Source of the DNA: Anaerotignum sp.
GTDB lineage: Bacteria; Bacteroidota; Bacteroidia; Bacteroidales; UBA932
Assembly (NCBI GenBank): GCA_963600795.1
Contig: CAVCDF010000108.1
Coordinates: 3,971 to 67,970 of the forward strand
Length of the DNA stretch: 64,000 nucleotides
Direction of reading: 5' to 3'
Positions 1 through 64,000 of the stretch are shown one piece after another; within the stretch, counting starts at the first letter, position 1; each line of letters opens with the position of its first letter. The notes under the pieces were generated by a model, which saw only the letters and a program-made list of their open reading frames with translations, did no database searches and was not told the origin of the DNA. A program made the position numbers and the translations under genes.

Positions 1-1407
1 GGCGTCGGCTATAAGTTTCTCGGCCGTACGGGTCTCGCTGAGGTCCTGGCCGGTAGTCACACCGTCGAACTGGCCTCCGGTGTCACCGACATAGCCGCGC
101 TCGTAGACGACCTCGGCGTCAGCGAACCGCTCACGGATTCCCTCAAGAGGAGAGATTTCGTATTTAACTTTCAATGAAGAACTTCCGCCACCGACAGTCA
201 TCATCTTGACTGCGTTCTCGCCCACTACAAGAATCTTCTTCGCATCCTTAATCGGAAGCAGACCGCCCTCGTTCTTGAGAAGGACAATACTCTCAGCTCC
301 GATTTTTCTCGCTGCCGCCTTATGCTCCGGAGACACGAACGAACCGTAAGGACGGTTCCTGTCCATAACCGTGCGGAACATCAGCTTCAGCACCCTGCGG
401 GCCTTGTTGTCCAGTTCCTCGGCACTGTACTTGCCGCTTTGTATGCCTCTGAGATAAGGTCCTGAGAGGTAGTAGTTTGCGTAGGCGTTGGAAGCCGACC
501 AGGTCAGACCGTTGGTGAACGTGCCGAACTCCATGTCAAGTCCGTTGGCGGCGGCCGCATCGGTGTCATGCGCTCCGCCCCAGTCAGTGACGACCACGCC
601 GTCGAAACCCCATTCGCCTTTCAGAATGCCGTTGAGGGTGTACTCGTTGTGGCAGCACCACTGGTTCTTGTACAGGTTGTAGGAACCCATTATGGCCCAG
701 GCTCCGCCTTCCTGGACGGCAGCCTTGAAAGCCGGAAGATAGATTTCGTAAAGAGTCCTGTCGTCGACGCTCACATTGGTCGTGAACCTGTTGATTTCCT
801 GATTGTTCAAAGCATAGTGCTTCACGCAGGAGGCCACTCCGTTGCTCTGCACTCCCTTCACGTACGGCACTACCATCCTGCTGGTCAGGTACGGATCCTC
901 GCCGAAATATTCAAAGCTTCTTCCGTTGAGAGGGGTGCGGCAGATGTTGACTCCAGGTCCGAGCAGAACGTCCTTCTTGCGGTAGCGCGCCTCCTCGCCG
1001 ATGCTCTTGCCGTAAAGTGCTGAAAGTTCGGGATTCCAGGAGGCCGCGAGGGCCGTCAGCGCAGGGAACGCCGTGCAGGAATCGCTTGTCCATCCGGCCT
1101 GGGACCACTTGTCCCACTGCACCTCTGCGCGGATGCCGTGAGGGCCGTCGCTGGTCCAGATCTCAGGGATTCCGAGACGAGGCACACCGGCAGAACTGAA
1201 CTTCGACTGGGCGTGCAGGATAGCCACCTTCTCCTCGGCGGTCATCCTTGACAGAGCGTCTTCGACCCTCTCGTCTATGGTTTTCGTTTCATCAAGAAAG
1301 ACAGGCCCGCCTTTTCCGGCGGCCTGTCTTCCAACATTCTTCTGCTGACCGCAGGCGACCGTTGCGGCCGCCAGGACCAGTCCCAAAAGCATTCTAAATC
1401 TTTTCAT
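1..1407 (-). CDS. Glycoside hydrolase family 3 (beta-glucosidase-like) lipoprotein; 3' end runs off the window
   Basis: Not in the ORF track because it has no stop in the window. Manual translation gives MKRFRMLLGLVLAAATVAC (lipobox), ILKGEWGFDGVVVTDWGG (GH3 nucleophile motif), SIVLLKNEGGLLP and KKILVVGENA. The ATG overlaps the hpf stop (TAATG). Confidence 0.9.
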   Translation of the reverse strand, partial: MKRFRMLLGLVLAAATVACGQQKNVGRQAAGKGGPVFLDETKTIDERVEDALSRMTAEEKVAILHAQSKFSSAGVPRLGIPEIWTSDGPHGIRAEVQWDKWSQAGWTSDSCTAFPALTALAASWNPELSALYGKSIGEEARYRKKDVLLGPGVNICRTPLNGRSFEYFGEDPYLTSRMVVPYVKGVQSNGVASCVKHYALNNQEINRFTTNVSVDDRTLYEIYLPAFKAAVQEGGAWAIMGSYNLYKNQWCCHNEYTLNGILKGEWGFDGVVVTDWGGAHDTDAAAANGLDMEFGTFTNGLTWSASNAYANYYLSGPYLRGIQSGKYSAEELDNKARRVLKLMFRTVMDRNRPYGSFVSPEHKAAARKIGAESIVLLKNEGGLLPIKDAKKILVVGENAVKMMTVGGGSSSLKVKYEISPLEGIRERFADAEVVYERGYVGDTGGQFDGVTTGQDLSETRTAEKLIADA

Positions 1408-1700
1408 TATACTTCAAAAGCCTTTTCCTTTGTTCTTACAATCTTTTCCTTCATCAGATCGACAGCGGCGCTCACGGCATCTTCGAACGAGGTCGAGTTC
1501 CTCTCGATGACAAGATCCTGGCCGTAGGCCCTTGTCTGAATCTTGACATTCTTGTTGTCCGGCTCTTTGAGCAAAGATAAGGTAACGTCAAGTCCTTCAA
1601 GATGGTCGCTGAATCTGGAAAGTTTCGAGACCTTCTTCTCTACATAGTCGAGCAGTTTCTGGTCTGCGTCGAACTTCAGGGATTTTACTCTAATCTCCAT
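1407..1700 (-). CDS. hpf: Ribosome hibernation promoting factor (RaiA/HPF)
   Basis: 97 aa, MEIRVKSLKFDADQKLLDYVEKKVSKL...SFEDAV; lies downstream of xerC as in other Bacteroidota. Confidence 0.88.
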   Translation of the reverse strand: MEIRVKSLKFDADQKLLDYVEKKVSKLSRFSDHLEGLDVTLSLLKEPDNKNVKIQTRAYGQDLVIERNSTSFEDAVSAAVDLMKEKIVRTKEKAFEV

Positions 1701-2745
1701 TTTTACCTCCGCTTTTTGCCCGAGGATGGGCGTTAACATAAACTTTTTTGAGTTTCTCGATGGAATTGTGCGTATAGACCTGCGTCGCCGCCAGCGAGGA
1801 GTGGCCCAGGAGTTCCTTTATGGAATTGAGGTCGGCTCCTTCGTCCAGAAGGCCGGTGGCCAGTGAATGCCTCAATACGTGGGGAGACTTTCTCCCGGTG
1901 ATGCTCCCGACCTGTCCCAGGCTGCTTTTCGTGACCCTTTCAATGAACATCGGATAGAGCTTTGAGCCCTTCGGCGTCACTGCAAGCGGTTCGTCCGCGG
2001 ACCTTTTGCGTCCTTCCATCGTTTCAACCGATTGTAAATATAGGGATATTTCTTTACATAACGAAGAAATCAGCGGAATTTCTCTCACCTTGTCTCCTTT
2101 TCCCCTGACCTTCATCGTGCTGCGGCTGAAATCGACATCCCCTATCCGCAGTCCGATCAGTTCGGCGCGACGGATGCCGGTGTTGTAGAGAATGGAAATG
2201 ATGAGTCTCGAGAGTCTTCTTGAATATGCCTGCTCGGATGTCCGGTCGTGTCCTAAGATGAGGGAGAGAGTTTCTTCGGAAGCGTCGCTTTCCGTCGAGG
2301 AGAAATATTCATTCATCGATTCCTCCCTGCAGAAAGACGGAAGACGCTTTTCGACCTTCGGTCTGGTCAGAATCCTGACCGGGTTGCTCTGCAGCAGGCC
2401 TTCCTTCACCAGCCATCTGCAGAATCCCGAGATCACCGACAGGTGCAGGTTGACTGTCCGAGGACACTCTTTCATTCCGTCCAGAAGCTGCACTTCGTAG
2501 CCTCTTATGACCTGCGGGACCAGCGACTCCAGCAGCAGGGCGTCATCCGCCGCGCCTGTCTTCCGGTTCCGCTCCCGGTCGCCGTCAGCCGCTCCGACAC
2601 TTTCCGCCGCTCCGACGCTTTCCGCCGCTCCGACACTTTCCGCAAAGCGCCGCAGCACGTCCGAATACACCTCCCCTGTCCTCGCAGAATACCTGCGGAC
2701 ATTCTTGACGTAGGAAATATATCTTTCAATCAGCGTCTCCGCCAT
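1690..2745 (-). CDS. xerC: Tyrosine recombinase, XerC-like
   Basis: Catalytic residues present: GIRRAEL, GKG, HVLRHS, LLGH, TQVYTH. Ends with a typical AHPRA tail and is adjacent to hpf. Confidence 0.85.
   Translation of the reverse strand: MAETLIERYISYVKNVRRYSARTGEVYSDVLRRFAESVGAAESVGAAESVGAADGDRERNRKTGAADDALLLESLVPQVIRGYEVQLLDGMKECPRTVNLHLSVISGFCRWLVKEGLLQSNPVRILTRPKVEKRLPSFCREESMNEYFSSTESDASEETLSLILGHDRTSEQAYSRRLSRLIISILYNTGIRRAELIGLRIGDVDFSRSTMKVRGKGDKVREIPLISSLCKEISLYLQSVETMEGRKRSADEPLAVTPKGSKLYPMFIERVTKSSLGQVGSITGRKSPHVLRHSLATGLLDEGADLNSIKELLGHSSLAATQVYTHNSIEKLKKVYVNAHPRAKSGGKNGD
2588..2643. repeat. 18-bp in-frame tandem repeat, 3 copies (AESVGA x3), inside xerC
   Basis: gccgctccgacactttcc / gccgctccgacgctttcc / gccgctccgacactttcc. 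Confidence 0.95.
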
Positions 2746-2837
2746 AGTCTGCAAGAATATTATATGTTCCGGTCACTATCACCTAGTCGAGCTTGTGCCA
2801 AATTACGATACAAGTGTCGAAAATTTATAAAAAATTT

Positions 2838-3258: not shown

Positions 3259-4434
3259 TCAGACATCAGAACGCTTTGCGCTCAAGAACCTCCAGACACA
3301 TACGGCCGTTGTGGTATGACATTTCCAGAAGCCGGCGCGGTCGTCCACCTTGTTCGGTGTGCCGTCGGCGCGCAGGCTCCAGTACCACTCCCCTTCCGGG
3401 CAGATGATGTGCCTGCGGATGAAATCCCATTCATTCCCGGCGGCTTCCAGCCATTTCTCCTCACCGGTCTTCTGGTACTGGTTCAGGCAGCCGACAACCG
3501 TCTCGGCCTGCACCCACCAGTGCCGGTCGGCATCACGCGCTGAAGTCGCGGGGTCATATTCATAAATCATTCCTCCGCCGGCGGTGAAACCCTCCATTGC
3601 AGCGGCGGCGACTTTGGCGCACACGGCCTTGACCTCCGCGGCCAGAACCTTGTCGCCCAGCACTTCAGCCGCCTCGTCCAGCAGCCACGAAGTCTCGATG
3701 TCGTGCCCGTAGGAAACGGCCGTGGAATGCGGAGTCCAATCGTCGCCGAAGAAGAGCCCCAGATGCCCGTCGGAACGGATGATCCTGTCAATGAATATCC
3801 TGATGAGTCCTCTGAGCCGTTCTCCGAGAGCCTCGTCCTTCCACACCCTGTAAAGGCCCGTGTAGCCCTCCAGGATGTGCAGATGGGTGTTCATCGTCTT
3901 GGAATCGTTCTGGTCCTTGTCGGAAAGACGCATATCCTCAATCACTCCCCACTCACGGGTGCAGGCCTCGATGTACCCCTCGCCGACAGGGTCGTAACTG
4001 TGCTCCTCGATGCAGCGGTAGAACGACTTCGCGAGTTCCAAAGCCTCCCGGCTGCCAGTGGCCCTTGAATATTCAGAAAGCCCGTAGATGGCGAAGGCGA
4101 TGGCGTAGAACTGCTTCTTCGTGTCCTTAGGCTTGCCGTCCGCACCGAGGCTCCAGTACAGGCCGCCGTACTCTTTGTCGGTGAACCGGTCGCGAATCTC
4201 TCTGAAGGCCCTTTCAGCCGTGTCGAGATAGGCTTTCCTGCCGAGAACCCGATAGGCGGAAGAGAATGTCCAGAGAATGCGGGAGTTGAGAATCGCTCCC
4301 TTTTCCGCGCCCGGAACAAGGTTGCCCCCGCCGTCAATCCTTCCGTAGAAGCCGCCCGCATGGTCGGTCATCCTGTCCATCCAGAAAGGGAGTATGTCAC
4401 CCTCCAGTTCTTTGAGAAACGATTGTCTTTCCAT
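3259..4434 (-). CDS. AGE-family cellobiose/mannobiose 2-epimerase with a 1-nt frameshift near the 3' end (pseudogene or sequence error)
   Basis: Motifs NSRILWTFS, KTMNTHLHILE, SYGHDIE and WWVQAE are present. The expected WKCPYHNGR is split by a frameshift at about 3318. Confidence 0.85.
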   Translation of the reverse strand: MERQSFLKELEGDILPFWMDRMTDHAGGFYGRIDGGGNLVPGAEKGAILNSRILWTFSSAYRVLGRKAYLDTAERAFREIRDRFTDKEYGGLYWSLGADGKPKDTKKQFYAIAFAIYGLSEYSRATGSREALELAKSFYRCIEEHSYDPVGEGYIEACTREWGVIEDMRLSDKDQNDSKTMNTHLHILEGYTGLYRVWKDEALGERLRGLIRIFIDRIIRSDGHLGLFFGDDWTPHSTAVSYGHDIETSWLLDEAAEVLGDKVLAAEVKAVCAKVAAAAMEGFTAGGGMIYEYDPATSARDADRHWWVQAETVVGCLNQYQKTGEEKWLEAAGNEWDFIRRHIICPEGEWYWSLRADGTPNKVDDRAGFWKCHTTTAVCVWRFLSAKRSDV

Positions 4435-4450: not shown

Positions 4451-6658
4451 CTATTTCTTCCTGCTCATCTTGAATTCGAGCACACCGCCGTCGATGATGT
4501 CCTGCTGGGTGAACTTCAAATCCTTGATTTCCTTTCCGTTAAGCTTCACCGACTTCACATAGATGGCATCGTCTGACTTCCTCGGAGCCTTCACCGTAAG
4601 CGTCTTGCCGCCCGGCAGATGGATAACGGACTCCGTGAAATGTGGAGAACCGATGACGAACCCGTCACCGCCGGCGTTGAACGGATAGAAGCCCATAGTC
4701 GAGAAGATGTACCACGATGACATCTGTCCGCAGTCGTCGTTGCCGGCATAGCCGTACGGCTTTTCGTTGTAGAACTTCACGCGCACCTCGTTCACGAGTT
4801 CCTGCGTGCGCCACGGCTGACCCGCATAATTGTAGAGATAGACGGTGTGGTGAGAAGGTTCGTTGCCGTGGGCATACTGGCCGATGAATCCGGAGGCGTT
4901 ATGGTTCTGCTTGACGTCCTTGTTCACAACGGTGAAGTTCTCGTTCAGCTTCTTCACGAACCCTTCTTCACCGCCCATAAGGCTGACGAGAGCTTCAGGG
5001 TTCTGCGGCACGAACCACAGATACTGCCAGGCGTTGCCCTCAGTGAAGGCATAACCGCCGTTGGCTCCGTACTTGAATGGATCGAACGGACGCATGAAAT
5101 TGCCGTCCGCGTCCTTCGGAGCGAAGAATCCGACCGTCGGATCCCAAAGATTGCGGTAGAATTCGGAACGCTTGTAGAACCGCTCGGCGTCTGCGGTCTT
5201 GCCGAGTTTCTTTGCGACGGCATACACGCACCAGTCATCGAAAGCCTGTTCGAGAGTGATGGAAACGGACTGAGTCTGGATAGGTTCAGGCATATAGCCG
5301 TATTTCTCCCAGACCTCGAAAGGCGAATTCTTGTGCGAAGTGGTTGAACTTTCCACCATAGCTTTGTAGGCCCTTTCGACATCGATGCCCGGGATTCCGG
5401 TCAGGATGGCGCGGGAAATCACCGGCATAGCGTGGTTGCCCACCATACAGTAGTTGTCCTGCCCCCAGAGATCCCAAATCGGCAGGTAGCCATATTCCTC
5501 CTGATGCAGAATCATGGAGTTTATCATATCGGCGGTGAGTTCGGGGAACAGCAGATTGTACAGAGGATGGGCGGCGCGGAAGGTGTCCCAGAGAGAGAAG
5601 GTGGAGTAATACTTCTTGCCGGCCGGCATCTGCTTGATTTCGAAAGTCGGAGTGACATAGCGTCCGTCGACGTCGCTTATCGCGTTAGGCTGGATCATAG
5701 TGTGGTAAAGACCGGTGTAGAATATCGTCTTGTCCACGTCGCTGCCGGTCACGTCAATCACCGCAAGCTGCTTCTCCCAGATGTCGTGGGCCGCCCTGCG
5801 GTAACCGTCGAAATCCCAGGATGTGCACTCGGCATTGAAGTTACGGCGCGCACCTTCGCTGTCAACCGCAGAAATGGAGACTTTTACCATTATCTGCTGA
5901 CCTTTGCCGTCAAAGTGAAGCATGGCGCGCAGCTTGTCGCCGTTGGCCACCTTGGCTCCGTGCATGTTGAATTCATCATTGAATAGCGTATGGTTGGCGA
6001 AAGGCTTGGAAAACTCTGCACGGAAATACACCCGGCGCATGTTCACCCAACCTTGTATCAGGCGGTAACCCTCGATTGTATGGTCGTCCACGAAGCGTAT
6101 CTGGCTCTGCAGTATGTGGTCGTCATCGTAAATCTGCTTCGTGAGGTCGAAAATGAAGTTCTGGCTCATTCCCGCCGGGAACGTGTAGCGGTGGATTCCG
6201 GTGTGTGCGGTGGCGGTCAGTTCAACCTTGATTCCGGTTTCCTTCAGTTTCACCCAATAGTAGCCGGGTTCCGCTCCTTCTTCAGAATGGGAGAAAGTCT
6301 GTGAATATTCATTGCCCTCGGAGAAGTCCGGGAGACTCTCAAGGTCGGTAGGCATAAGCGACACGTCGATCAGATCCGTGGCGCCGGTACCGCTCAGGTG
6401 GGTATGGGTGAAGCCGAAAATCCTGTCTTTGCTGTAGTCGTAGCCCGAGCATGGATCCCAGGAGACAAAGTACCTTGTGTCGGGACAAAGCTGCACATTG
6501 CCGAACGGCACGCACGCGCCCGGGAATGTCGCGCCGGCAAGCGCTCCGGTGCTGTCGGTCTGAGTGCCGATGAAAGGATTCACATACTTGGTGTGGTCAT
6601 CCGCGGCAAGATTGACGCAGACTGACAGGCAAGCCAAAAGGAAGAAGACTTTTCTCAT
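4451..6658 (-). CDS. GH92 alpha-mannosidase, secreted
   Basis: Signal peptide; YVNPFIGT, GFTHTHLSGTG, SLWDTFR, FTEGNAWQY, HGNEPSHH, GNDDCGQMSSWY. Confidence 0.93.
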   Translation of the reverse strand: MRKVFFLLACLSVCVNLAADDHTKYVNPFIGTQTDSTGALAGATFPGACVPFGNVQLCPDTRYFVSWDPCSGYDYSKDRIFGFTHTHLSGTGATDLIDVSLMPTDLESLPDFSEGNEYSQTFSHSEEGAEPGYYWVKLKETGIKVELTATAHTGIHRYTFPAGMSQNFIFDLTKQIYDDDHILQSQIRFVDDHTIEGYRLIQGWVNMRRVYFRAEFSKPFANHTLFNDEFNMHGAKVANGDKLRAMLHFDGKGQQIMVKVSISAVDSEGARRNFNAECTSWDFDGYRRAAHDIWEKQLAVIDVTGSDVDKTIFYTGLYHTMIQPNAISDVDGRYVTPTFEIKQMPAGKKYYSTFSLWDTFRAAHPLYNLLFPELTADMINSMILHQEEYGYLPIWDLWGQDNYCMVGNHAMPVISRAILTGIPGIDVERAYKAMVESSTTSHKNSPFEVWEKYGYMPEPIQTQSVSITLEQAFDDWCVYAVAKKLGKTADAERFYKRSEFYRNLWDPTVGFFAPKDADGNFMRPFDPFKYGANGGYAFTEGNAWQYLWFVPQNPEALVSLMGGEEGFVKKLNENFTVVNKDVKQNHNASGFIGQYAHGNEPSHHTVYLYNYAGQPWRTQELVNEVRVKFYNEKPYGYAGNDDCGQMSSWYIFSTMGFYPFNAGGDGFVIGSPHFTESVIHLPGGKTLTVKAPRKSDDAIYVKSVKLNGKEIKDLKFTQQDIIDGGVLEFKMSRKK

Positions 6659-16157: not shown

Positions 16158-17384
16158 CTAGAGTTCTTTTTCAAGCTGTTCGCCTTCGTCCTTGTGGGCG
16201 GTGTAGTAAACGCGCAGAGGAGTCGAAGAGACCTTGATGAAGCCCTTCGCGTCCTCGCTGGTCCAGCCTTTCTGCATCTCGCCATACTCGCCGAATTTGG
16301 TCTTGACGAGGTCGCAAGGGGAATCCACGCCGACGGTCGAGAACGACCACGGACGGAGTTCCATCGTCACCTTGCCGGTCACGTTCCTCTGGCTGCTCTC
16401 GAGCATCGCCTCGATGTCCCTCATCACAGGCTCCAGGTACTGGCTCTCGTGCAGGAACATTCCGTACCAGTTGGCCACCTGGTCTTTCCAGTACTGCTGC
16501 CACTTGCTCAGGGTGAATTTCTCGAGGAACTTGTGGGCGGCGATGATCAGCATAGGAGCGGCGGCCTCGAAGCCCACGCGGCCCTTGATGCCGATGATGG
16601 TGTCACCGACGTGCATGTCGCGTCCGATGCCGTAAGGCGCGGCTATGTTCTCGACGGCCTGGATTGCAGCCACCTTGTCTGAATATTCCTTACCGTTGAC
16701 GGCTGCGATCTCGCCGTTTTTGAACTCGATCTCTACGGTCTCGGAACCTTCCTTCGTGATCTGCTTGAGGTAGGCCGACTCAGGAAGTCCCTGCTTGGAG
16801 TCCAGAATCTCGCCGCCGCAGATGGAAGTGCCCCAGAGGCCGACGTTGTAGGAATATTTAAGTTTCTTGAAATCAGCCTTGAAGCCGTGCTGGTTGAGGT
16901 AGTCGACCTCGAACTGGCGTGTGAGCGCCATATCGCGGGTCAGAGTGATGATCTCGATGCCCGGAGCCATCACGAGAAATGTCATGTCGAAGCGGACCTG
17001 GTCGTTGCCCGCTCCCGTGGAGCCGTGGGCGATGGCGTCAGCGCCGATGGACTTGGCGTAGCGGGCGATGGCCATAGCCTGGAATATTCTCTCGGAAGAA
17101 ACCGAAATCGGATAGGTCCCGTTCCTCAGCACATTGCCGTAGATCATGTACTTCAGGCTCTTGTCATAATATTCCTTTGTCACGTCGAGGGTGACATATT
17201 CCTTGGCGCCGAGTTCGTAGGCGTGCTTCTCGTTATCCTTCAGCTGTTCTTCGCTGAATCCGCCGGTGTTCGCGCAGGCTGCGTAAACCTCGTATCCCTT
17301 TTCCCTGGTCAGATACATCACGGTGAATGATGTGTCAAGTCCGCCGCTGAATGCGACGACTACCTTCTTCTTTTCCATATTCAT
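16158..17384 (-). CDS. argG: Argininosuccinate synthase
   Basis: AFSGGLDTS, AHGSTGAGNDQVRF, IIGIKGR; the start overlaps the upstream stop (TGATG). Confidence 0.95.
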   Translation of the reverse strand: MNMEKKKVVVAFSGGLDTSFTVMYLTREKGYEVYAACANTGGFSEEQLKDNEKHAYELGAKEYVTLDVTKEYYDKSLKYMIYGNVLRNGTYPISVSSERIFQAMAIARYAKSIGADAIAHGSTGAGNDQVRFDMTFLVMAPGIEIITLTRDMALTRQFEVDYLNQHGFKADFKKLKYSYNVGLWGTSICGGEILDSKQGLPESAYLKQITKEGSETVEIEFKNGEIAAVNGKEYSDKVAAIQAVENIAAPYGIGRDMHVGDTIIGIKGRVGFEAAAPMLIIAAHKFLEKFTLSKWQQYWKDQVANWYGMFLHESQYLEPVMRDIEAMLESSQRNVTGKVTMELRPWSFSTVGVDSPCDLVKTKFGEYGEMQKGWTSEDAKGFIKVSSTPLRVYYTAHKDEGEQLEKEL

Positions 17385-18004
17385 CAATTGATTTTTTCGT
17401 TTTCCGATGCATCGATTCTTCTGATTCTTTCAAGCACGTCCTGAGGGATCTTGGCCGGCAGATGCTCCTCAGGGTCGAAGAGCATTCCCGTGCAGATGCA
17501 GTACTTCCTGTCCGTGCGCTTCAGCACATCGACGTTGATGCAGCCCTCGCAGCCTTTCCAGAACGCTTCATCAGTGGTCAAATTGGCGAAAGTCACCGGT
17601 TTGTACCCCAGCTGGGTGTTCATCGTCATCACGGCTGCGCCGCTGGTGAGACTGAATATCTTCGCGTGCGGCCATCTGGTGCGCGCAAGCGTGAAAGTCA
17701 GGTCCTTGATGCGTTTTGCCAGACCCAGGCCCCGGAAATCCGGATGCACGATCAGTCCTGAAGTGGTGACATACTGTCTGTGTTCCCAGGTTTCGATGTA
17801 GCTGAAACCGGCGAACCGCTTGCCTTTGAGAGCGATCACAGCCTTGGCCTCCTTCATTTTCTGGGCCACGTACTCCGGCTTTCTCTTCGCGATGCCGGTG
17901 CCTCTCACCTTGGCTGCGTCTTCAATTGTCTTAAGAATCTCATCGACGTAAATGAGGTGCTCCTCCGAAGCCACCTCGACTGTCAACTCATCCTGTTGCG
18001 TCAT
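17384..18004 (-). CDS. GNAT acyltransferase, probable Bacteroidota-type N-acyl(succinyl)glutamate synthase (ArgA function)
   Basis: RGTGIAKR, SGLIVHPDFRGLGLAK, FWKGCEGC...CICT; lies between argR and argG. Confidence 0.8.
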   Translation of the reverse strand: MTQQDELTVEVASEEHLIYVDEILKTIEDAAKVRGTGIAKRKPEYVAQKMKEAKAVIALKGKRFAGFSYIETWEHRQYVTTSGLIVHPDFRGLGLAKRIKDLTFTLARTRWPHAKIFSLTSGAAVMTMNTQLGYKPVTFANLTTDEAFWKGCEGCINVDVLKRTDRKYCICTGMLFDPEEHLPAKIPQDVLERIRRIDASENEKIN

Positions 18005-20359: not shown

Positions 20360-20389
20360 AAAACAAATGGTTTATTGTGAATATATTCG

Positions 20390-28669: not shown

Positions 28670-28714
28670 CCTATCATTTTTCCGGACGGAAAGTCCGGGA
28701 ATATATTCACGAAA

Positions 28715-32991: not shown

Positions 32992-33067
32992 CGAACTTAA
33001 GCCTATTTTCTCGTTTCACCAAATATTTTTCTCGTTTTTCAATAAAATCTTATTGAATATATTCAAT
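32992..33067. promoter_or_regulatory. XRE promoter (TTTG-N20-TAAGTTCG, minus strand) overlapped by 21-bp-phased operator-like sites and a 16-bp palindrome
   Basis: Sites start at 33008, 33029 and 33050; ATTGAATATATTCAAT at 33052-33067. Confidence 0.5.
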
Positions 33068-43698: not shown

Positions 43699-44640
43699 CT
43701 ACCTCAGTCCTTCAAGGCAGGCCTTCACGTTCGCCTCGATGGACGACGCGGAATATTCAGCCTTTTCAAAAGCCTCTCCGGTGATGTGCTCGTAAAGTTC
43801 GATGTAACGGTCGGAAATTCCGCCGACAACTTCCGGAGTCATCTGAGGGATCTTCTGTCCGTCCTGTCCCTGGAAACCGTTGGCCATCAGCCACTCGCGC
43901 ACGAATTCCTTGGAAAGCTGCTTCTGGTGCTCTCCTTTCGCGAGCCTCTCCTCGTAACCGTCGGCATAGAAATAGCGTGAAGAGTCCGGGGTGTGGACCT
44001 CGTCCATCAGATAGATCTGACCGTCCTTCTTTCCGAACTCGTACTTCGTGTCAACCAGGATCAGACCCTGCTTCGCGGCGATTTCGCAGCCTCTGGCATA
44101 GATGGCTCTGGTGTAGGCCTCCAGCTTCTCGTAATCCTCGCGTCCTACCAGACCCTGCGCGATGATCTCCTCCTTGGAGATGTCCTCGTCGTGTCCTTCG
44201 GCCGCCTTTGACGTCGGAGTCACGAGCGGCTCCGGGAATTTCTGGTTCTCCACCATCCCGTCCGGCATCCGAACTCCGCAGATGGTGCGCTTCCCTGCCT
44301 TGTACTCTCTCCAGGCGTGGCCGGCGAGGTAACCGCGGATGACCATCTCGACTTTGAAAGGTTCGCATTTGTAGCCTACTGTCACTGACGGGTCGGGAAC
44401 GGCTATTTTCCAGTTGGGCAGAATGTCCGACGTGGCGTCAAGGAACTTGGCCGCTATTCTGTTCAGCACCTGTCCCTTGAAAGGAATACCTTCAGGCAGG
44501 ACGACATCGAAGGCGGAGATCCTGTCGGTCACCACCATGACGAGATACTTCCCGTCAATGTCATACACGTCACGGACCTTGCCGGTGTACTTTCCGACCT
44601 GTCCCGGCAGATTGAAGCCGGTCTTTACAATTGCTTCCAT
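43699..44640 (-). CDS. purC: SAICAR synthase
   Basis: [33 protein letters not shown]. Confidence 0.95.
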
Positions 44641-45144: not shown

Positions 45145-45176
45145 ATTCCAGTCTTTCGATGTTCTCCTGAATATTC

Positions 45177-52053: not shown

Positions 52054-53025
52054 ATGGAAAACTCAAAGAAGAAGGACGGAAAACCGTCCGCATCGTTCGT
52101 CATCGGGGCGGTCGCCCTGCTGTTTCTCATCATAGGCTACCAGGCGGCCCTTTTCATCCACAAGGCCGCAGTCGCACGCATCATCGCGAATCACGACAGC
52201 CCGGACACCGTCTTTGTCCGGCAGACGGACACTGAATCCGCCGGCCGGACAGCGCACGGCGGCACCGCACGCTTCCCTGCCGGGAACGCGGCGGGAGGAG
52301 TCGCGAAGAAACAACCTGGCAGACCCGAAGCCAGAGAAAACGCAGGACAGGCCGTAACACGAAGGAATTCAGAGCATTCTGTAGAAGCGACGGCAATCAG
52401 GCGCAGCAACGCTCCGAGACGGTACGAATGCTTCAGGTTTGACCCCAACACCGCAGGGATCGATGACCTTATGCGCCTGGGATTTTCCCTCAAGCAGGCC
52501 GAGTCGATTGACAACTACAGGAAGAAAGGCGGAAGATTCCGGCGCAAAAGCGATTTCGCGAAATCCTACGTGGTCGAGGATTCCGTCTATGCAAGGCTTG
52601 AAAAGTACATAGACATTCCCAGGCTGGACATCAATTCCGCCGACTCGGTCCAGTTCCTGTCCCTTCCGGGAATCGGAAAGTTCTTCGCCGGGAAAATGGT
52701 GGAACAGCGGGAAAAGCTTGGAGGATATTCATCCATCGAGCAGCTGATGGACATCTGGCACTTCGACCAGGAGAAGTTCGACGGGCTGAAGGACCTTATC
52801 GAAGCGGACACGACAGGAGTGCAGGCATATTCATTATGGACACTCCCCGAGAAGGAACTCGCCAAGCACCCCTACATAGGCTGGCGGGCGGCTAAAGGTA
52901 TCGTGCTTTTCCGGGAGAACTCGCCTAAGGAGGACTGGACAGTCGAAAATCTTGTGAAAGCTGGGATTCTTGAGCCGGGGAAAGGGGAAAAGCTCAGCCG
53001 CTGCCGGATAAGAAAGCCTGAATGA
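52054..53025 (+). CDS. Membrane-anchored multi-HhH DNA-binding protein (ComEA-like)
   Basis: N-terminal TM segment; FDPNTA...LG, LDINSADS..LSLPGIG...REKLGGY, HPYIG. Confidence 0.82.
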   Translation: MENSKKKDGKPSASFVIGAVALLFLIIGYQAALFIHKAAVARIIANHDSPDTVFVRQTDTESAGRTAHGGTARFPAGNAAGGVAKKQPGRPEARENAGQAVTRRNSEHSVEATAIRRSNAPRRYECFRFDPNTAGIDDLMRLGFSLKQAESIDNYRKKGGRFRRKSDFAKSYVVEDSVYARLEKYIDIPRLDINSADSVQFLSLPGIGKFFAGKMVEQREKLGGYSSIEQLMDIWHFDQEKFDGLKDLIEADTTGVQAYSLWTLPEKELAKHPYIGWRAAKGIVLFRENSPKEDWTVENLVKAGILEPGKGEKLSRCRIRKPE

Positions 53026-53874: not shown

Positions 53875-56800
53875 ATGAATAAGTTGCTATACAAATCACT
53901 TGGATGTTGGCTCATCTTGGCAGCGGCTTTTCTGCCGGCACGGATGTCGGCGGAAGCACAAAAAGCCCCTGCCGCGGCGCAGCCGGCCACCGCAGCGCTG
54001 ACGACAGCAATGCAGCATGCCTCAACAGCACAATCGATGCCAACGGAACAGGGGATCCTGCTCACCGGAAGGGTGGTGGACACGGATGGCGAGCCGGTGA
54101 TCGGAGCCGGAATCGTGTCGGCGGAGAAGAAATCGGTCGGAACGACCAGCGACCTAGGCGGCAGGTTCAGCCTCAGGCTTCCGGAAGGGGCCAAGTCCGT
54201 CATCTTCTCCTCTGTCGGGATGAAAGAGGTTGTCTACAAGATAGTTCCGGGAAAGACCGAAGGCATCACCATCGTGATGGAATGGGAGGACAACCAGCTC
54301 GACCAAGTGGTCGTGACGGGATACGCCCAGACGACAGTCAAGAGGATCACCGGATCCGTGGCCGTGCTGGATTCCGACAAGTTCACCGCCAAAGCCATCT
54401 CATCGGTGGACGCCCTGATGCAGGGAGAGGTCGCCGGTGTGACCGTCTCGGCGACATCCGGACAGCCAGGCACCCAATCCACAATAAGAATCAGAGGAGC
54501 GAACAACATAAGCGGAAGCAGCCAGCCGCTCTGGGTGGTTGACGGAGTGCCGCTCCAGAGCGAATCCCCTTCCCTGACTTCCGAAGAGCTCGCCACCGGA
54601 GGCTTCGACAACATATTCGTGAACGGCATCGGCAACATCAATCCGAATGACATCGAGAGCATCACGATCCTGAAGGACGCGGCCGCGGCGGCCATTTACG
54701 GCTCGAGGGCGGCGAACGGAGTCATAGTCGTGACTACTAAGAAAGGCGAAGCCGGAAAGATGAGGGTCAGCTACAACAACACCTTCACCCTTTCGATCAA
54801 GCCGCAGCGTTCCCTGAACCTGATGGACTCCGCCGAGAAACTTGCCTGGGAGCAGGAACTCTGGGACGAGTTCTCGGCAGACAAGTACGCCGCCTCCCTG
54901 AAGGACAACACGGTGATCTACCCGGTCGTCGGCATTGTCGGCCAGATCAGGGCCGGAGTAGGGCCATTCGCCTCGATGAAGGGCGACACCGCCGCCCAGG
55001 ACGCCTGCATCACCTCCCTGCGGGATGTAGACACAGACTGGTACGGCCTGCTTTTCCGCAACGCCTTCTCGCAGGGGCACCACCTTTCGCTGAGCGGCGG
55101 CACCGAGAAGAACACCTACTATGTCGCGCTCGGAGTCAACGACGAGGACGGAATGCTGGTCCACAACGACTACAGGCGCTACAACGTCAACACCAAGATG
55201 ACCCTCAAGCCGACGGACTGGCTCAGGCTGGACCTCGGGATGGAGGCCGCCAGGCAGGAATCCAAGATGCCTACCTCGACCGTGGACCCGTTCCTCTACG
55301 CCTACTTTTCGAACCCTTACGAGAAGGCCTACAACGAGGACGGATCCTACGCGGCGGACAACACTTGGTTCACCCTGGGCTACTACAACGGACGCGGAAT
55401 TCAGGAGGTGATGCCTGAGAACGGCTTCAGCATCCTCCGCGAACTGGACTCCAACTACAGCGAGACCCGCAACACCAACGGCACCGTCAGGGCGCAGGCC
55501 GACTTCAGGATAGCCGAGCCTCTGCACTTCGTCGGACTCGCATCCTACTCCTTCGCCAACAACGCCACCGACAAGGTGGTGGACAAGTACACCTACACAG
55601 CCTTCAAGGACAGGCTCGGCAACGACGACCGTTCCACGACCAACCTCTACGGCAGCATAGCCCAGAACCGCACCAACCGCGACAGCTACGTGGTCCGTGG
55701 CCATTTCGCCTTCAACAGGACCTTCGGCGATAAGCACACTGTCAACGTGCTGGCGGGAGCTGAACTCCGCGGCGCCAACTCCAACACGATCTTCACGAAG
55801 CGCTACAACTACGACCCGAAGACCGGCACGACCTCCCTGCCCGCCATCAGCGGCACCACGGACGACTGGGTCTCCGACGTCGAGAAGCTGAACGGTGAAT
55901 ATTACAGCAAATCCCGCTACGCGTCTTTCTACGCCTCGGCGGACTACTACCTCGGAAAGACAATCGTCCTGAACGCTTCGTTCAGGACCGACGGAAGTTC
56001 CTACTTCGGAAGCAACCGTCAGTTCAACCCGACCTGGAGCGCCGGAGCGGCCTGGCACCTGGGCGAGGAGGACTGGATGAAACGGTCGCTGCCGGCCGTC
56101 TCCCACGCCACGCTCAGAACCGCCTACGGCTTCACCGGCGACATCAACACAAGCACCTCCCACCTGCTCGTGATGGAATATCTCCAGCAGCAGTACCGCT
56201 ACTTCGGGGACAACACCTACAGCCTCGGCACGGTCACCTCGGCCCCGAACCCGGACCTCGGCTGGGAAAAGACCCGGGACGCCAAAATCGGGCTTGACTT
56301 CGGACTGTGGAAAGACAGGCTGACCGTCAACTCCGAGTACTACTACAGGCTCAGCACCGACGTGGTGGCCTCATCCTATGTGCAGAGCACGACCGGGTTC
56401 AGCTATGTCTATTTCAATTCGGCCGACATAATGAACAGCGGAGCGGAGGTCACGGTGAACGGGAAGTTCCTCCAGACGAAGGACTGGAGCCTCGGAGCGG
56501 CCGTGAACTTCGCCTGGAACTACAACAAGGTCCTCAAATACACCCCTTCCTCAAGCAGCGGAATATCCTCGAAGGACCGCTACGTGGAGGGTTATCCGAC
56601 GGGAGCGATCATCAGCGGAAAATATGCAGGAATAGCCTCGGACACAGGACTTTATCAGTTCAAGCTCCGTCCCGACGCAGAGATTTCCTCGGCCACCGAC
56701 CTCAACAAGGCCGACAACTACAGGTACTATCTCGGCACGACCATAGCCCCGTACACCGGAGGCTTCAACCTGACGGCCTCCTGGAAACAGCTCAAGCTGA

Positions 56801-57303
56801 GCGTCAACGGAGTGGTCTCTCTCGGCTCGAAGACCTACGAGAAGATGCGCTTCCCGGCCGGCTACTCGAGCTGCTCGCATTCGGGAGTCAGCACCGAGAC
56901 CGTCCAGTCGCAGTTCAGCGACCTCTACGGCAACCATCTCAATGTCGAGAAGGACAGAACTTCCAGATGGACGGCCGAACACACGACCGGGGTCAAATAC
57001 CCACGCATCTACGACTACTTTGACGCGAAGTACAACTTCTCGTCCTACTATCCGATGGACTACAAGATCGTCGACGCCGTGTACCTGAAGAACAATTCCT
57101 ATGTCCGCATAAAGTCCATCATCCTGACATATTCCCTGCCCGGCGATGCGGTCAAGAAACTCAGGATGAGGGGCCTCAGCTTCAACCTTTCACTGAACAA
57201 CTTCTTCACGTTCACTGAATATGACGGGATGGACCCGGAGGTTCCGGGGGCCACCTACCCTACAACAAGAAGCATGTCCGGAGGCATAAACGTAGAATTC
57301 TAA
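53875..57303 (+). CDS. SusC/RagA TonB-dependent transporter
   Basis: Signal peptide, N-terminal extension (GRVVDTDGEPVIGA), TonB box LDQVVVTGY, plug motif LKDAAAAAIYGSRAANGVIVVTTKKG, terminal Phe. Confidence 0.95.
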   Translation: MNKLLYKSLGCWLILAAAFLPARMSAEAQKAPAAAQPATAALTTAMQHASTAQSMPTEQGILLTGRVVDTDGEPVIGAGIVSAEKKSVGTTSDLGGRFSLRLPEGAKSVIFSSVGMKEVVYKIVPGKTEGITIVMEWEDNQLDQVVVTGYAQTTVKRITGSVAVLDSDKFTAKAISSVDALMQGEVAGVTVSATSGQPGTQSTIRIRGANNISGSSQPLWVVDGVPLQSESPSLTSEELATGGFDNIFVNGIGNINPNDIESITILKDAAAAAIYGSRAANGVIVVTTKKGEAGKMRVSYNNTFTLSIKPQRSLNLMDSAEKLAWEQELWDEFSADKYAASLKDNTVIYPVVGIVGQIRAGVGPFASMKGDTAAQDACITSLRDVDTDWYGLLFRNAFSQGHHLSLSGGTEKNTYYVALGVNDEDGMLVHNDYRRYNVNTKMTLKPTDWLRLDLGMEAARQESKMPTSTVDPFLYAYFSNPYEKAYNEDGSYAADNTWFTLGYYNGRGIQEVMPENGFSILRELDSNYSETRNTNGTVRAQADFRIAEPLHFVGLASYSFANNATDKVVDKYTYTAFKDRLGNDDRSTTNLYGSIAQNRTNRDSYVVRGHFAFNRTFGDKHTVNVLAGAELRGANSNTIFTKRYNYDPKTGTTSLPAISGTTDDWVSDVEKLNGEYYSKSRYASFYASADYYLGKTIVLNASFRTDGSSYFGSNRQFNPTWSAGAAWHLGEEDWMKRSLPAVSHATLRTAYGFTGDINTSTSHLLVMEYLQQQYRYFGDNTYSLGTVTSAPNPDLGWEKTRDAKIGLDFGLWKDRLTVNSEYYYRLSTDVVASSYVQSTTGFSYVYFNSADIMNSGAEVTVNGKFLQTKDWSLGAAVNFAWNYNKVLKYTPSSSSGISSKDRYVEGYPTGAIISGKYAGIASDTGLYQFKLRPDAEISSATDLNKADNYRYYLGTTIAPYTGGFNLTASWKQLKLSVNGVVSLGSKTYEKMRFPAGYSSCSHSGVSTETVQSQFSDLYGNHLNVEKDRTSRWTAEHTTGVKYPRIYDYFDAKYNFSSYYPMDYKIVDAVYLKNNSYVRIKSIILTYSLPGDAVKKLRMRGLSFNLSLNNFFTFTEYDGMDPEVPGATYPTTRSMSGGINVEF

Positions 57304-57319: not shown

Positions 57320-58717
57320 ATGAAAAGAACAAGAATATTCATAAAGCCAGTCGCTTGGGCGGCGCTACTTCTAGCCGCCGCAGGCTGCTCCGGCTACCTC
57401 AGCGTCAAGCCGCAGGGCGAAGTGATTCCTGAGACTGACGACGAGTTCGCATCCATCATCCACTACCGCCTGAGGCAGATCGAGGGCGGTGAGGATGAAT
57501 ATGTGGTCGGCAACATCGAGGCGATAGTGCATTTCGACGGGGTGGCCGACGACCTCGACGCCAACATCCGCAACAATGCCAACCTCCCGTCCTTCGCCGG
57601 CGACGAGATCAACAGCCGCCAGCTGGCCTACGAGAACGCCTGGGAGGTCGTCAAGGACTGCAACATCGTGATAGAGAACCTTGAGGGACGGGACACCGAT
57701 GTCGCCAGAGGGGCCCTCGCGGCGGCATATTCAATGAAAGCCATCATCTACTGCAACCTGCTGAGGGAGTACTGCCAGCCGTGGTCCGACTCGCAGGCTG
57801 ACGAACTGCCGGGCATCCCGATAGTGGACAAGTTCGACATCAGCGCCACCCCGGCCCGCGGCACGATGCGCCAGACCTACGACTATGCCAGGTCGCTCTT
57901 CTCTTCGGCGCTCGCCCTGGACCCGCAGGACCCGACCTACGTGTTCACCGAATGGATAATCAAGGGCTTCCAGGCGCGTCTCGAGTTCTGGTGCGGCCAG
58001 TGGGACAACGTCATCACCCTCTGCGAGGACATCCTCTCCGGCAGCGGCTACACCCTCACCCCAATTTCTGAATATGCCGACGTGATCAACGCCGAATATG
58101 ACACGAAGGGCGAGGTGATGGTCCGCTCGTACATCAACAACTCCTGCGACATGGCGTGGTACATCAACTATCTGAAGTCCTATATCGGCGCGCGCCCGGC
58201 CTGCGCCAGACTCATAAAGCTTTTCGGCGACGAACCGGAGAAGGATGTCCGCTATTCCTGCAGTTTCGACAAGAAGAGGATGAACGTCAAGAATCCTGTC
58301 TGCAGGCTCCGGCTTTCGGAGATAGTGCTGATGCTCTCAGAAGCATATTACCACAAGGGCGATGACGCATCCGCACTTAAACTGCTGAACGAATTGAGAC
58401 GCAACAGGATAGAAGGTGTGACCGACCTGACGGTGGATTCCCTGCCGGAAGTGCGGACCGGGGACAGGATCACGGTGGACTGCTACGGACAGCCGCTCAC
58501 TCCCCTTCTCCAGGCCATCTTCGACGAAAGGCGCAAGGAACTCTACCTTGAGAGAGACCGCTGGTTCGAGCTGAAGCGGAACGGAAGGCCGGAATGGTGG
58601 ATCATCAGCAACGGACTGAAATACACCACGAAAGAGTACCTCTACACCTCTCCGATCTCCAAGTCGGATGTGGACAGGAATCCGGAACTGGTACAGAATC
58701 CGGGCTACGTGTATTAA
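57320..58717 (+). CDS. SusD/RagB lipoprotein
   Basis: Lipobox AAGC; RLSEIVLMLSEA, LNELRRNR, ERRKELYLE..RWFELKR, QNPGY. Confidence 0.93.
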   Translation: MKRTRIFIKPVAWAALLLAAAGCSGYLSVKPQGEVIPETDDEFASIIHYRLRQIEGGEDEYVVGNIEAIVHFDGVADDLDANIRNNANLPSFAGDEINSRQLAYENAWEVVKDCNIVIENLEGRDTDVARGALAAAYSMKAIIYCNLLREYCQPWSDSQADELPGIPIVDKFDISATPARGTMRQTYDYARSLFSSALALDPQDPTYVFTEWIIKGFQARLEFWCGQWDNVITLCEDILSGSGYTLTPISEYADVINAEYDTKGEVMVRSYINNSCDMAWYINYLKSYIGARPACARLIKLFGDEPEKDVRYSCSFDKKRMNVKNPVCRLRLSEIVLMLSEAYYHKGDDASALKLLNELRRNRIEGVTDLTVDSLPEVRTGDRITVDCYGQPLTPLLQAIFDERRKELYLERDRWFELKRNGRPEWWIISNGLKYTTKEYLYTSPISKSDVDRNPELVQNPGYVY

Positions 58718-62635: not shown

Positions 62636-62651
62636 TGTCCAGGCCAAGCGG

Positions 62652-64000
62652 CTATCTCACGCCCCATTCAGAAGGCTGAGGTCCCATTTCAAGTTCGAGG
62701 GTTCCACCTGCCGCAATATCCTTGTAATCGATGAAGCATTCGTCCAGCGCCTTCCCGTTGAGGGTGGCGCTTTGGATGTAGATGTTCTCCGGACTGTTCC
62801 CGCGCGCAATGACAGTGAAGTTCTTGCCGGAAGCATAGACCGGATCCGTCTTTATCACTATCCTGTCAAAGACAGGACTCGTGATCTCCATCCGGGTGTC
62901 GCCCGGGCAGGAAGGATGAAGGCCGGAAGCGGAAAGCACATACCAGGCTGACATCTGGCCTACGTCGTCGTTGCCCACCAGACCTGTCATCATGTCGTCC
63001 GAATAGGCGTGGCTGCAGATGAAACGTGTCCATTTCTGGGTGTTCCACGGCTCGCCCAGGCGATTGAACAGGAACGGCACAAGATGCACCGGTTCGTTGG
63101 CGTGGTTGTAATAGTCGTTCCACATCATATTGTCCGGAGTCTTCTCGAAGAACTCCGTCAGGTCGGCAAGAGTCCTTTCGCGGCCGCCCATCAGTTCCGC
63201 CATACCTTCCGGATCGTGAGGCACGAACCAGCCCTGCTGATAGGGGTTGCTCTCGATGCAGCCGTAGCCGTGCCTGGTCCTGGCGCTGTCCGGCCATTCG
63301 CCCCAGGAACCGTCGGCGCGGCGCAGCCTGAACCAGCCCTTCCCGCCATCGAATATGTTCCGGTACGCCTGTCCCCTCTCCCGATAGAGAGCCGCGTCCT
63401 CCGTCTTGCCCAGAGCGTCGGCCAGTCTTGAGATGCACCAGTCAAAGTAGGCATATTCAAGGGTCTCGGAGATGCCGTTGGAAGACGGCGACCACCCGAG
63501 AGGCCAGTTGCCGAACTTCGCGTCGGAATTGACGGCATAGCGGTAAGCCTCCTGCACATCGTAATTCCTGCAGATGCCTTTAAGGTAGGCGTCTGCAAGC
63601 ACGGAGACTGCAGGATTCCCTATCATGCATCCTGAATATGCATTCAGAAACTCCCACCTTTCATAATATTCTCTTCCGCTCTCCCTTGCCAGAGAGACAA
63701 GCGACTCGAGGACATCGTCGACAACCCCCGGATTGATGATGGTCTGCAGAGGCATCTCGCTCCTGAAGACATCCCAGCCGCTGAATATGGTCCTTTTGAC
63801 GAATTTTCCTGAAGCCTCGTGAGGTTTCAGGTCACCGCCGACATAGCGGCCGTCCACGTCGGCATAGATTCTCGGATCGATCATCGAATGGTAAAGAGCC
63901 GTGTAGAAAGTGGTCTTTTCGGCATCGGAACCTCCGGCTATGCCGATCTTGGAAAGCTCCGAGTTCCAGCTGTCATAGGCTTCAGCCTTGATCCGGTCGA
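62652..64000 (-). CDS. GH92 alpha-mannosidase; 5' end outside the window
   Basis: Frame is open to the window edge; FYTALYH, FSGWDVFR, ESNPYQQ, NHANEP, GNDDVGQMSAWY. Confidence 0.92.
   Translation of the reverse strand, partial: DRIKAEAYDSWNSELSKIGIAGGSDAEKTTFYTALYHSMIDPRIYADVDGRYVGGDLKPHEASGKFVKRTIFSGWDVFRSEMPLQTIINPGVVDDVLESLVSLARESGREYYERWEFLNAYSGCMIGNPAVSVLADAYLKGICRNYDVQEAYRYAVNSDAKFGNWPLGWSPSSNGISETLEYAYFDWCISRLADALGKTEDAALYRERGQAYRNIFDGGKGWFRLRRADGSWGEWPDSARTRHGYGCIESNPYQQGWFVPHDPEGMAELMGGRERTLADLTEFFEKTPDNMMWNDYYNHANEPVHLVPFLFNRLGEPWNTQKWTRFICSHAYSDDMMTGLVGNDDVGQMSAWYVLSASGLHPSCPGDTRMEITSPVFDRIVIKTDPVYASGKNFTVIARGNSPENIYIQSATLNGKALDECFIDYKDIAAGGTLELEMGPQPSEWGVR

Follow-up and report, generated by a model that had tools for sequence, protein, structure and literature searches.

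Why does one short word, the hexamer GAATAT with its reverse complement ATATTC, recur so densely along a piece of bacterial chromosome that carries ordinary genes? The question is raised by the DNA stretch analysed here (hereafter the window), i.e. 64,000 nucleotides at positions 3971-67970 of contig C108 in genome assembly G000, which comprises 2,562,860 bases in 216 contigs with a GC content of 54.2% and is 100% complete by markers. The assembly belongs to Candidatus Cryptobacteroides, a genus of uncultured gut and rumen genomes, of which 151 were sampled. By counting the word in the window, the genome, the genus and the order, and by following its sites between close relatives, we found that it is, with high confidence, a real, lineage-specific and actively maintained signal at the level of DNA.

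The GAATAT word in the window

Exact counting in the window (GC 55.4%) yielded 78 GAATAT and 67 ATATTC versus 9.7 and 9.9 expected from base composition, i.e. observed/expected ratios (O/E) of 8.0 and 6.8, the top two of all hexamers by this measure; 126 of the 145 sites fall within called genes. The extended 8-mer was found at 33 sites (16 TGAATATG and 17 CATATTCA) versus 1.2 expected. Upon synonymous codon shuffling within each of 48 window genes (60 replicates), 120 observed sites compared with 35.8±4.8 (z = 17.5). An original prediction, made from the letters of the window by hand count, had put the two hexamers at about 77 and 67 with some 20 expected, and its accompanying tallies also proved exact or nearly so, namely 11 palindromes GAATATTC, three copies of GAATATATTC that each lie between called genes, four examples of the word in different codon frames, and about eight GAATAC/GTATTC (four of each by exact count) although Tyr is mostly spelled TAC, as it is in 65% of cases genome-wide. 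The sites are listed below, with the strand where one was assigned and the palindromes positioned by exact count.

1-64000: hexamer field, 145 sites (78 GAATAT + 67 ATATTC)
4067-4074: GAATATTC, two overlapping half-sites, within TGAATATTCA at 4066
6303-6310: GAATATTC, within TGAATATTCA at 6302
16681-16688: GAATATTC
17082-17089: GAATATTC
27539-27546: GAATATTC
28184-28191: GAATATTC, within TGAATATTCA at 28183
32775-32782: GAATATTC, within TGAATATTCA at 32774
35791-35798: GAATATTC
43751-43758: GAATATTC
45169-45176: GAATATTC
57333-57340: GAATATTC
20379-20388: GAATATATTC, in the gap between genes 18941-20359 and 20390-20998
28699-28708: GAATATATTC, in the gap between genes 26278-28398 and 28715-31537
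33055-33064: GAATATATTC, in the divergent gap between genes 32175-32648 (- strand) and 33191-34015 (+ strand)
54613-54618, + strand: ATATTC as ATA-TTC (Ile-Phe), frame 0, in the SusC-like gene 53875-57303
56176-56181, + strand: GAATAT as GAA-TAT (Glu-Tyr), frame 0, in the same SusC-like gene
56561-56566, + strand: GAATAT as xGA-ATA-Txx, in the same SusC-like gene
57727-57732, + strand: ATATTC as xxA-TAT-TCx, within CATATTCA at 57726, in the SusD-like gene 57320-58717

Enrichment in all reading frames and in noncoding DNA

Throughout G000, 2,564 GAATAT and 2,571 ATATTC were counted (5,135 sites in 2.56 Mb; O/E 5.9 and 5.8), which makes the word the top hexamer of the genome, the next being GAAGAA with an O/E of 4.0. 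Sites were evenly distributed along genes, and their density was 1.5 to 3.0 per kb on all 38 contigs of at least 20 kb. Under Markov controls the genome-wide O/E was 6.5 at order 1 (O/E1), 3.0 at order 2, 2.25 at order 3 and 1.3 at order 4, the drop at high order arising because the word's own sub-words carry the excess. Other AT-rich hexamers were not equally enriched, the runners-up TGAATA, TATTCA, CATATT, AATATG and AATATT being shifted forms of GAATAT. The one-mismatch neighbours had O/E1 values of 0.82 to 2.48 versus 6.5 for the word, none of them being depleted; with every neighbour at 2.5 or below, all six positions of the word therefore matter.

The two orientations were balanced on individual contigs (for the hexamer, 93 contigs gave a chi-square of 67.4 with p = 0.98; for the 8-mer, 46 contigs gave 39.3), in agreement with the absence of strand bias noticed originally; orientation was unrelated to that of genes and correlated weakly with GC skew (rho 0.29). 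Such balance per contig sets the word apart from polar ones like Chi and the FtsK-orienting polar sequences (KOPS).

Gene calls made for the analysis (1,811 genes over 83% of G000) placed 2,046 GAATAT and 1,949 ATATTC on the sense strand, while intergenic DNA held 492 and 533 versus about 142 and 145 from its own composition. A null that keeps all proteins and the genome codon usage gave O/E of 3.0 and 3.7 for the two hexamers, ranked them first and second by z among hexamers with an expectation above 20, and revealed enrichment in each of the six frames (O/E 1.8 to 9.5); genome-wide synonymous shuffling per gene (60 replicates) gave 1,330±33 sites versus 3,995 observed (z = 80), so that the enrichment outlasts the codon shuffle here as in the window. 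Glu-Tyr was spelled GAA-TAT in 1,331 of 2,342 cases versus 373 expected, and the third positions of the Glu and Tyr codons, four bases apart, interacted with an odds ratio of 13.8. Likewise, ATA makes up 20% of Ile codons overall and 48% of those ahead of TTC, and TAT makes up 91% of Tyr codons ahead of TCA. The Glu-Tyr dipeptide itself had an O/E of 1.29 in G000 versus 0.85 in outgroup loci of the genus. The word is thus a DNA-level signal rather than a codon effect, as had been proposed, being enriched in all six frames and in noncoding DNA, symmetric between strands, and marked by the third-position interaction.

The unit is an asymmetric word

In G000 the 8-mer TGAATATG occurs in 1,255 copies versus about 55 expected, a 23-fold excess, in which T at -1 and G at +6 act independently (O/E 1.06 at maximal Markov order). 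To remove codon effects, flanks were read from the 914 noncoding sites alone: T stood at -5 in 49% of them and at -1 in 44%, and +6 was G or T in 69%, with backgrounds of 27% and 23% per base, and GAATAT was the top noncoding hexamer under an order-1 Markov null (O/E1 3.5). With these flanks persisting in noncoding sites, the unit is thus the asymmetric word T-N3-TGAATAT-G/T with the core GAATAT, and not a palindrome. The palindrome excess had been singled out in the original prediction, and its 11 copies of GAATATTC in the window are real, as are 416 sites in G000, but the palindrome does not exceed what its overlapping halves provide (O/E 1.07 relative to sub-words at maximal Markov order; AATATT 0.74). 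At about 12 bp, or about one helical turn, the unit may correspond to the footprint of a protein.

Other arrangements of the word were considered and rejected. The ArgR box (TGAAT-N4-ATTCA) was matched once in the window and, in the genome, 14 times with N4 and once with W4, and is irrelevant to 5,135 sites. A special role at gene boundaries was discarded as well, GAATAT at -4 of the start codon matching the about 10-fold excess that the 7-mer has everywhere, and inverted pairs or a terminator-like arrangement displayed no clear short-spacing excess besides the overlapping palindrome. As to gene starts, the start ATG is the ATG of GAATATG in 104 of 1,542 genes with a called start and 42 more genes begin with ATGAATAT, while for genes beginning with ATGAATATG the true start is ambiguous. 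The densest motif window of the genome (41 sites in 6 kb) is produced by an array resembling clustered regularly interspaced short palindromic repeats at C71:1-2400 (locus L166), with about 33 copies of a 37-nt repeat at a period of 73 to 75 nt, each repeat holding CATATTC.

The trait is confined to one subclade of Cryptobacteroides

The density of TGAATATG, calculated as count over rounded genome size, was about 340 to 670 per Mb in 14 of the 151 genus genomes (490 in G000), 115 to 240 in about a dozen, and 15 to 115 in the rest. A GyrB/ParE-type marker of 646 aa was matched in 143 of the 151 genomes, and the 22 genomes with at least 85% marker identity to G000 (G000 itself and three partial matches included) comprised all 14 high genomes together with 8 of intermediate density. 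A quick maximum-likelihood tree of this single gene, with 41 rows and with G017 omitted as a partial match, joined 21 of the 22 genomes in one clade with a Shimodaira-Hasegawa-like approximate likelihood-ratio support of 100. The clade consists of a basal high lineage (G045), the pair G000 and G011, and two subclades of nine rows each, one high and the other, nested, with densities of 151 to 340 per Mb; rankings by ComEC and by the ComEA-like protein placed the same genomes nearest G000.

A sample of 300 further genomes of the order, representing more than 140 families, did not reveal the trait; the highest density there was about 183 per Mb versus 490 in G000 and the highest ratio to a reversed-word control about 10 versus about 125. 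The lineage specificity that had been suspected from the window therefore narrows to one subclade of one genus. The original author knew of no description in Bacteroidales, and our search of open-access papers and preprints also found none, neither of the GAATAT word nor of an uptake-type or HIP-type word in Bacteroidetes/Cryptobacteroides.

A graded comparison was made on pooled loci of about 20 kb around the marker, grouped as high, intermediate and outgroup. In this order, Glu-Tyr was spelled GAA-TAT in 68%, 43% and 37% of cases (5.8, 3.4 and 1.8 times independent codon choice), Ile-Phe was spelled ATA-TTC in 59%, 48% and 24%, T occupied -1 in 51%, 30% and 25%, and the hexamer ranked 1, 5 and 29 of 2,080; CATATTCA was also the top 8-mer in high genomes outside the G000/G011 lineage. 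The O/E of the hexamer and the 8-mer were 4.5 and 15.5 in 50 clade loci, and 2.5 and 3.6 in 30 outgroup loci. With outgroup loci already enriched, the genus as a whole thus has a modest excess, which the clade has amplified and sharpened; of the approximately 7-fold excess first reported for the window, which is real, about 2.5-fold over composition is this common baseline. Among the loci, L099, L100, L122, L132 and L133 come from records titled Gastranaerophilales, Treponemataceae, Methanomethylophilaceae archaeon, Bulleidia and Eggerthellaceae; these look mislabelled, their contigs encoding the Bacteroidales marker at 71 to 91% identity, and some are motif-enriched.

Sites are maintained while their positions turn over

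The sister genome G011 was aligned to G000 over 391 kb at 92.7% identity, with a divergence of 15.6% at third codon positions and 7.5% in noncoding DNA. Within this alignment, conservation of the motif hexamers ranged from 87 to 93% over the frame classes of the two orientations and reached 91% among noncoding sites (100 of 110), compared with a median of about 70% for hexamers of the same class, so that the word's percentile rank for conservation among all hexamers was 0.97 to 1.00 within each frame class and in noncoding DNA. In total, 686 of 757 sites (90.6%) were conserved versus 2,129 of 3,009 (70.8%) for the 18 one-mismatch neighbours (odds ratio 4.0, p = 7e-34), and gains and losses were balanced, with 71 sites found only in G000 and 89 only in G011.

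Between independent close pairs of marker-region loci, the loss ratio of the motif to AT-rich control hexamers was lowest in the 10 high pairs (0.41), higher in the 9 intermediate pairs (0.73) and nearest to one in the 5 outgroup pairs (0.87). A two-state equilibrium model of synonymous switches put the rate of loss in motif context at 0.09 to 0.50 and that of gain at 0.9 to 4.4, relative to other contexts. Some gains replaced amino acids, such as the change of Asp-Tyr GACTAT to Glu-Tyr GAATAT. Across seven orthologous genes, 80 aligned site columns included 15 occupied in outgroups only, 27 in fewer than 10% of clade genomes, and 1 in at least 90%. The sites are thus actively maintained, yet their positions turn over between lineages.

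Newly arrived mobile DNA lacks the word. Motif-poor stretches are few in G000 and include contig C187, which encodes a TraG P-loop domain, DUF3875, a Phd/YoeB pair and SSB and reads as a conjugative element; C190, plasmid-like, with a Rep3 initiator; and C196, phage-like, with WYL/WCX and a YqaJ recombinase. A low-GC polysaccharide-synthesis locus on C75 is motif-poor too, and so is the 3.2-kb contig C133, which encodes an N6_Mtase-HATPase_c fusion. C187, C190 and C196 have 55 to 61% GC and are either mobile elements of the organism or mis-binned contigs. The C133 fusion (C133:653-3106; locus L056:238-2691, - strand; 817 aa) joins an N6_Mtase/Eco57I-type domain to a C-terminal GHKL (HATPase_c) ATPase domain, and may belong to a defence system on a mobile element.

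Methyltransferase and competence genes

Six-frame family searches, which among the high genomes covered G000 alone, found no MethyltransfD12, N6_N4_Mtase or DNA_methylase match in this genome and two N6_Mtase matches, namely the C133 fusion and a gene on C49. A regular expression for the catalytic motif of amino-methyltransferases had 15 matches among the 1,811 called genes and revealed no further DNA methyltransferase, its sole match without a Pfam family being a signal-peptide membrane protein. The C49 gene, an Eco57I/MmeI-type Type IIG methylase, was rejected as a driver: it is present in 13 of the 151 genus genomes and absent from the sister G011, and its homologs, at no more than 65% identity, are scattered over high, intermediate and low genomes, unrelated to the trait. 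This Type IIG restriction-methylase (C49:9243-11687) is cut by the contig end and, among the 151 genomes, is specific to G000 at high identity.

As for DNA uptake, G000 carries ComEC (an intact 377-aa short form), DprA and a ComEA-like protein. The ComEA-like gene lies in the window:

52054-53025, + strand: ComEA-like protein, 323 aa, two HHH_3 domains (Pfam); a candidate DNA receptor only if the uptake reading holds

Both ComEC and the ComEA-like protein evolve far faster than the GyrB/ParE-type marker, e.g. the ComEC of G045 is 50% identical and its marker 88%. ComEC, at C129:14381-15514 in G000 as well as genus-wide, is short (about 360 to 420 aa) and holds the channel domain only; no metallo-beta-lactamase domain was seen in the 377-aa G000 protein.

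The window is otherwise ordinary chromosome, with an arginine-biosynthesis cluster and argR, recA, a GyrB/ParE-type gene, SusC/D-like genes, glycoside hydrolases and the ComEA-like gene. A phage-integrase-family gene lies near its start (1690-2745, - strand). The Mom-like gene that the original prediction mentioned was not found in the window; the nearest thing to it is a weak GNAT acetyltransferase in the arginine cluster (17384-18004, - strand), probably the gene that was meant.

What keeps the word abundant

As the most likely mechanism, to which we assign a probability of roughly one in three, the word may serve as a tag of self DNA in uptake or recombination, like the DNA uptake sequences (DUS) of Neisseriaceae and the uptake signal sequences (USS) of Pasteurellaceae. 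Its reader would be a sequence-specific protein that covers about 12 bp of double-stranded DNA and accepts the word in both orientations, and a weak directional force acting across the genome would keep the word abundant: matched sequences disappear 2 to 10 times faster than existing sites, while new sites arise at least as fast, so that the word spreads to every reading frame, to noncoding DNA and even into amino-acid choice. So spread, it would mark resident DNA for the uptake and recombination pathway and accumulate via biased uptake plus homologous recombination and/or weak selection. We infer both the protein reading and the pathway, the latter favoured by parallels with uptake sequences, which in the excerpted text of PMC2817400 occur in all frames, shift peptide frequencies and are absent from genes without homologs; it is favoured too because the cyanobacterial highly iterated palindrome HIP1 has recently been proposed as a possible uptake sequence, according to an excerpt of PMC13756078.

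By extension, and more doubtfully, this could be the first DNA uptake or self-recognition sequence in Bacteroidota, in which T-N3-TGAATAT-G would be read without type IV pili and would bias transformation and recombination to conspecific DNA in gut and rumen Cryptobacteroides. The reader would then perhaps be the fast-evolving periplasmic ComEA-like double-HHH protein or a surface DNA-binding protein, and the subclade 'dialects' (T at -1 in 51% of high versus 30% of intermediate sites), together with the graded strength, would trace how this reader was gained and has partly decayed.

Several observations weigh against such a tag. The core is short and its enrichment modest (6-fold for the hexamer, 23-fold for the 8-mer), in contrast to DUS and USS, whose enrichment is at least 100-fold. 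In G000 the search for secretin (PF00263) was negative and T2SSE (PF00437) gave only a sub-threshold match, with no type IV pilus ATPase; together with the ComEC, DprA and ComEA-like genes, this pattern of presence and absence recurs in the Bacteroides thetaiotaomicron control. The presence of ComEC (146 of 151 genomes) and of the ComEA-like gene (143 of 151) was rejected as a correlate of the trait, both being ubiquitous in the genus; no competence gene tracks the trait, and no reader protein was identified. Spacing of the sites is near-Poisson (coefficient of variation 1.12, variance/mean 1.3), i.e. slightly over-dispersed and not regular, and the 2.5-fold baseline of outgroups means that the trait may exaggerate a general compositional tendency. 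Furthermore, the gain and loss estimates assume stationarity and are based on 2 to 16 discordant sites per class, and some two-state classes fit suppressed loss only as well as they fit fixation bias.

This last point also serves a mutation or repair bias, a possible though rather unlikely account, in which a clade-specific repair or replication factor protects the word or corrects near-matches to it, and the word is functionless. The trait is indeed quantitative and graded across lineages from the 2.5-fold outgroup baseline, its enrichment over outgroups is approximately the inverse of the loss ratio, the discordant counts of several two-state classes fit suppressed loss with unchanged gain about equally well, and the commonest one-step alternatives are the transition neighbours GAATAC, GAACAT and GAGTAT; for HIP1, a biased mismatch-repair model has been published (excerpt of PMC4390886). 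However, no one-mismatch precursor is depleted, the bias would need to act simultaneously on positions -5, -1 and +6 as well as on the entire six-base core, and amino-acid replacements also create sites. The largest class, i.e. TAC/TAT following GAA, has 16 discordant sites, about 7 being expected under loss suppression alone. A Vsr-type repair system would have no partner, no C5 methyltransferase having been found in G000, where Vsr itself was not searched for; and a repair bias, too, still needs a sequence-specific protein.

It is unlikely, though conceivable, that a nucleoid-associated or chromosome-organising protein binds the sites and that they are held in place by weak selection, as an excerpt of PMC5861425 proposes for HIP1. 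Besides this precedent, the conservation in all frames and in noncoding DNA, the footprint inferred at about 12 bp, the even cover of all 38 large contigs and the absence of the word from mobile DNA would suit such a protein, but positions are not kept across the clade (1 of 80 columns in at least 90% of genomes), spacing is slightly over-dispersed rather than regular, and no clade-specific DNA-binding protein was identified.

Improbable in our view is that GAATAT is the target of an undetected orphan DNA methyltransferase, with methylation-dependent repair, replication or transformation keeping the word abundant, in the manner of HIP1 with DmtA and DmtC. Two methylases recognise HIP1, as stated in the excerpt of PMC13756078. 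Asymmetric words of 6 to 8 bp are typical of Type IIG, Type III and Type I targets, and an assembly of 216 contigs could miss a gene. Nevertheless, G000, complete by markers, is without matches to the three methyltransferase families named above, its two N6_Mtase matches are the C49 gene, unrelated to the trait, and the fusion on motif-poor C133, and the catalytic-motif search of its called genes gave no other DNA methyltransferase. Thus, of the original proposal that the word is a signal for uptake, modification or nucleoid organisation, the DNA-level and lineage-specific character stands, whereas modification is weakened by a genome in which no Dam-type, beta-class N6/N4 or C5 methyltransferase was found.

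Highly improbable, and largely refuted, is that avoidance of other words (CATG, CTAG, TA generally) funnels synonymous choice into GAATAT. CATG is strongly avoided in G000 (O/E 0.28; CTAG 0.06), which explains part of the AATATG/CATATT excess there, with Asn-Met spelled AAT-ATG in 465 of 712 cases. Its avoidance is, however, distributed independently of the GAATAT trait: CATG has an O/E of 0.04 to 0.12 in 6 to 20 kb loci of G151, G059, G052, G053, G163 and G020 (L003, L005, L020, L032, L033 and L038) and is normal in other relatives. High genomes without CATG avoidance keep the word (CATG 1.13 and hexamer 5.6 in the G045 locus; 0.95 and 5.7 in G004), and in pooled high loci outside the G000/G011 lineage the hexamer still ranks 1 of 2,080, on which grounds CATG avoidance was rejected as the cause. 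Contrary to word avoidance, the three other Glu-Tyr spellings are all reduced together, and contrary to synonymous funnelling, noncoding DNA is enriched in GAATAT. Taken by itself, patchy avoidance of CATG is what a restriction system specific for CATG typically leaves, but the G000 assembly yielded no methylase of the Dam class.

A codon-pair or translational preference without DNA-level meaning deserves next to no credence, for although GAA-TAT is the largest class (1,331 of the 2,046 sense-strand GAATAT), the sense strand is just as enriched in the reverse complement, the enrichment is not confined to one of the six frames, and noncoding DNA is both enriched and conserved.

The readings as a translational effect, as a polar word of replication and as a by-product of avoiding restriction sites are excluded, and each explanation that is left requires a sequence-specific reader.

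Significance and comparison with known systems

Hyper-abundant conserved words are known from very few bacterial groups, i.e. Neisseriaceae, Pasteurellaceae and cyanobacteria, where they opened questions on transformation, self-recognition or chromosome organisation; the present case concerns abundant yet uncultured gut and rumen Bacteroidales. The natural series of strong, weak and absent trait within one genus suits a search for the reader by phylogenetic profiling, and the word offers a simple signature by which the chromosomal DNA of the clade can be recognised in metagenomes and told from its mobile elements. Should uptake or recombination really be promoted by the word, its addition to donor DNA could aid genetic tractability, and natural transformation would shape the genomes of gut Bacteroidales; if a sequence-specific repair bias is responsible instead, this would be an unusually sharp example.

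Restriction-site avoidance, as of CATG and CTAG in the same genome, is likewise lineage-specific, frame-independent and patchy among close relatives but has the opposite sign, GAATAT being enriched and not avoided. Chi and KOPS, or architecture-imparting sequences, are over-represented short chromosomal words as well. Chi and KOPS are strand-skewed with replication and read by DNA-processing proteins, whereas GAATAT is without strand skew and has equal sense and antisense counts. HIP1 (GCGATCGC) of cyanobacteria is closer in that it is a hyper-abundant short word conserved inside and between genes and variable or absent in some lineages; excerpts of PMC5861425 and PMC13756078 report its sites as conserved between genomes and its two methylases. 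HIP1, which recurs with a periodicity of 10 to 90 kb, is a GC-rich palindrome, while the GAATAT word is AT-rich and asymmetric, with no trait-linked methylase found in our searches.

From DUS and USS the word differs by its 6-bp core (8 to 12 bp with flanks), its far weaker 6- to 23-fold enrichment, a host, G000, in which no type IV pilus ATPase or secretin was found, and its occurrence in uncultured Bacteroidales, a phylum for which the literature searched held no uptake sequence. With them it shares a short lineage-specific form, roughly one site per 0.5 to 2 kb in both orientations and in coding and noncoding DNA, occurrence in all frames with preferred ones, shifted peptide frequencies and absence from recently acquired genes. 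In both cases, moreover, related lineages vary in density and in flanking 'dialect', just as DUS dialects are described as differing among related lineages in an excerpt of PMC3630211.

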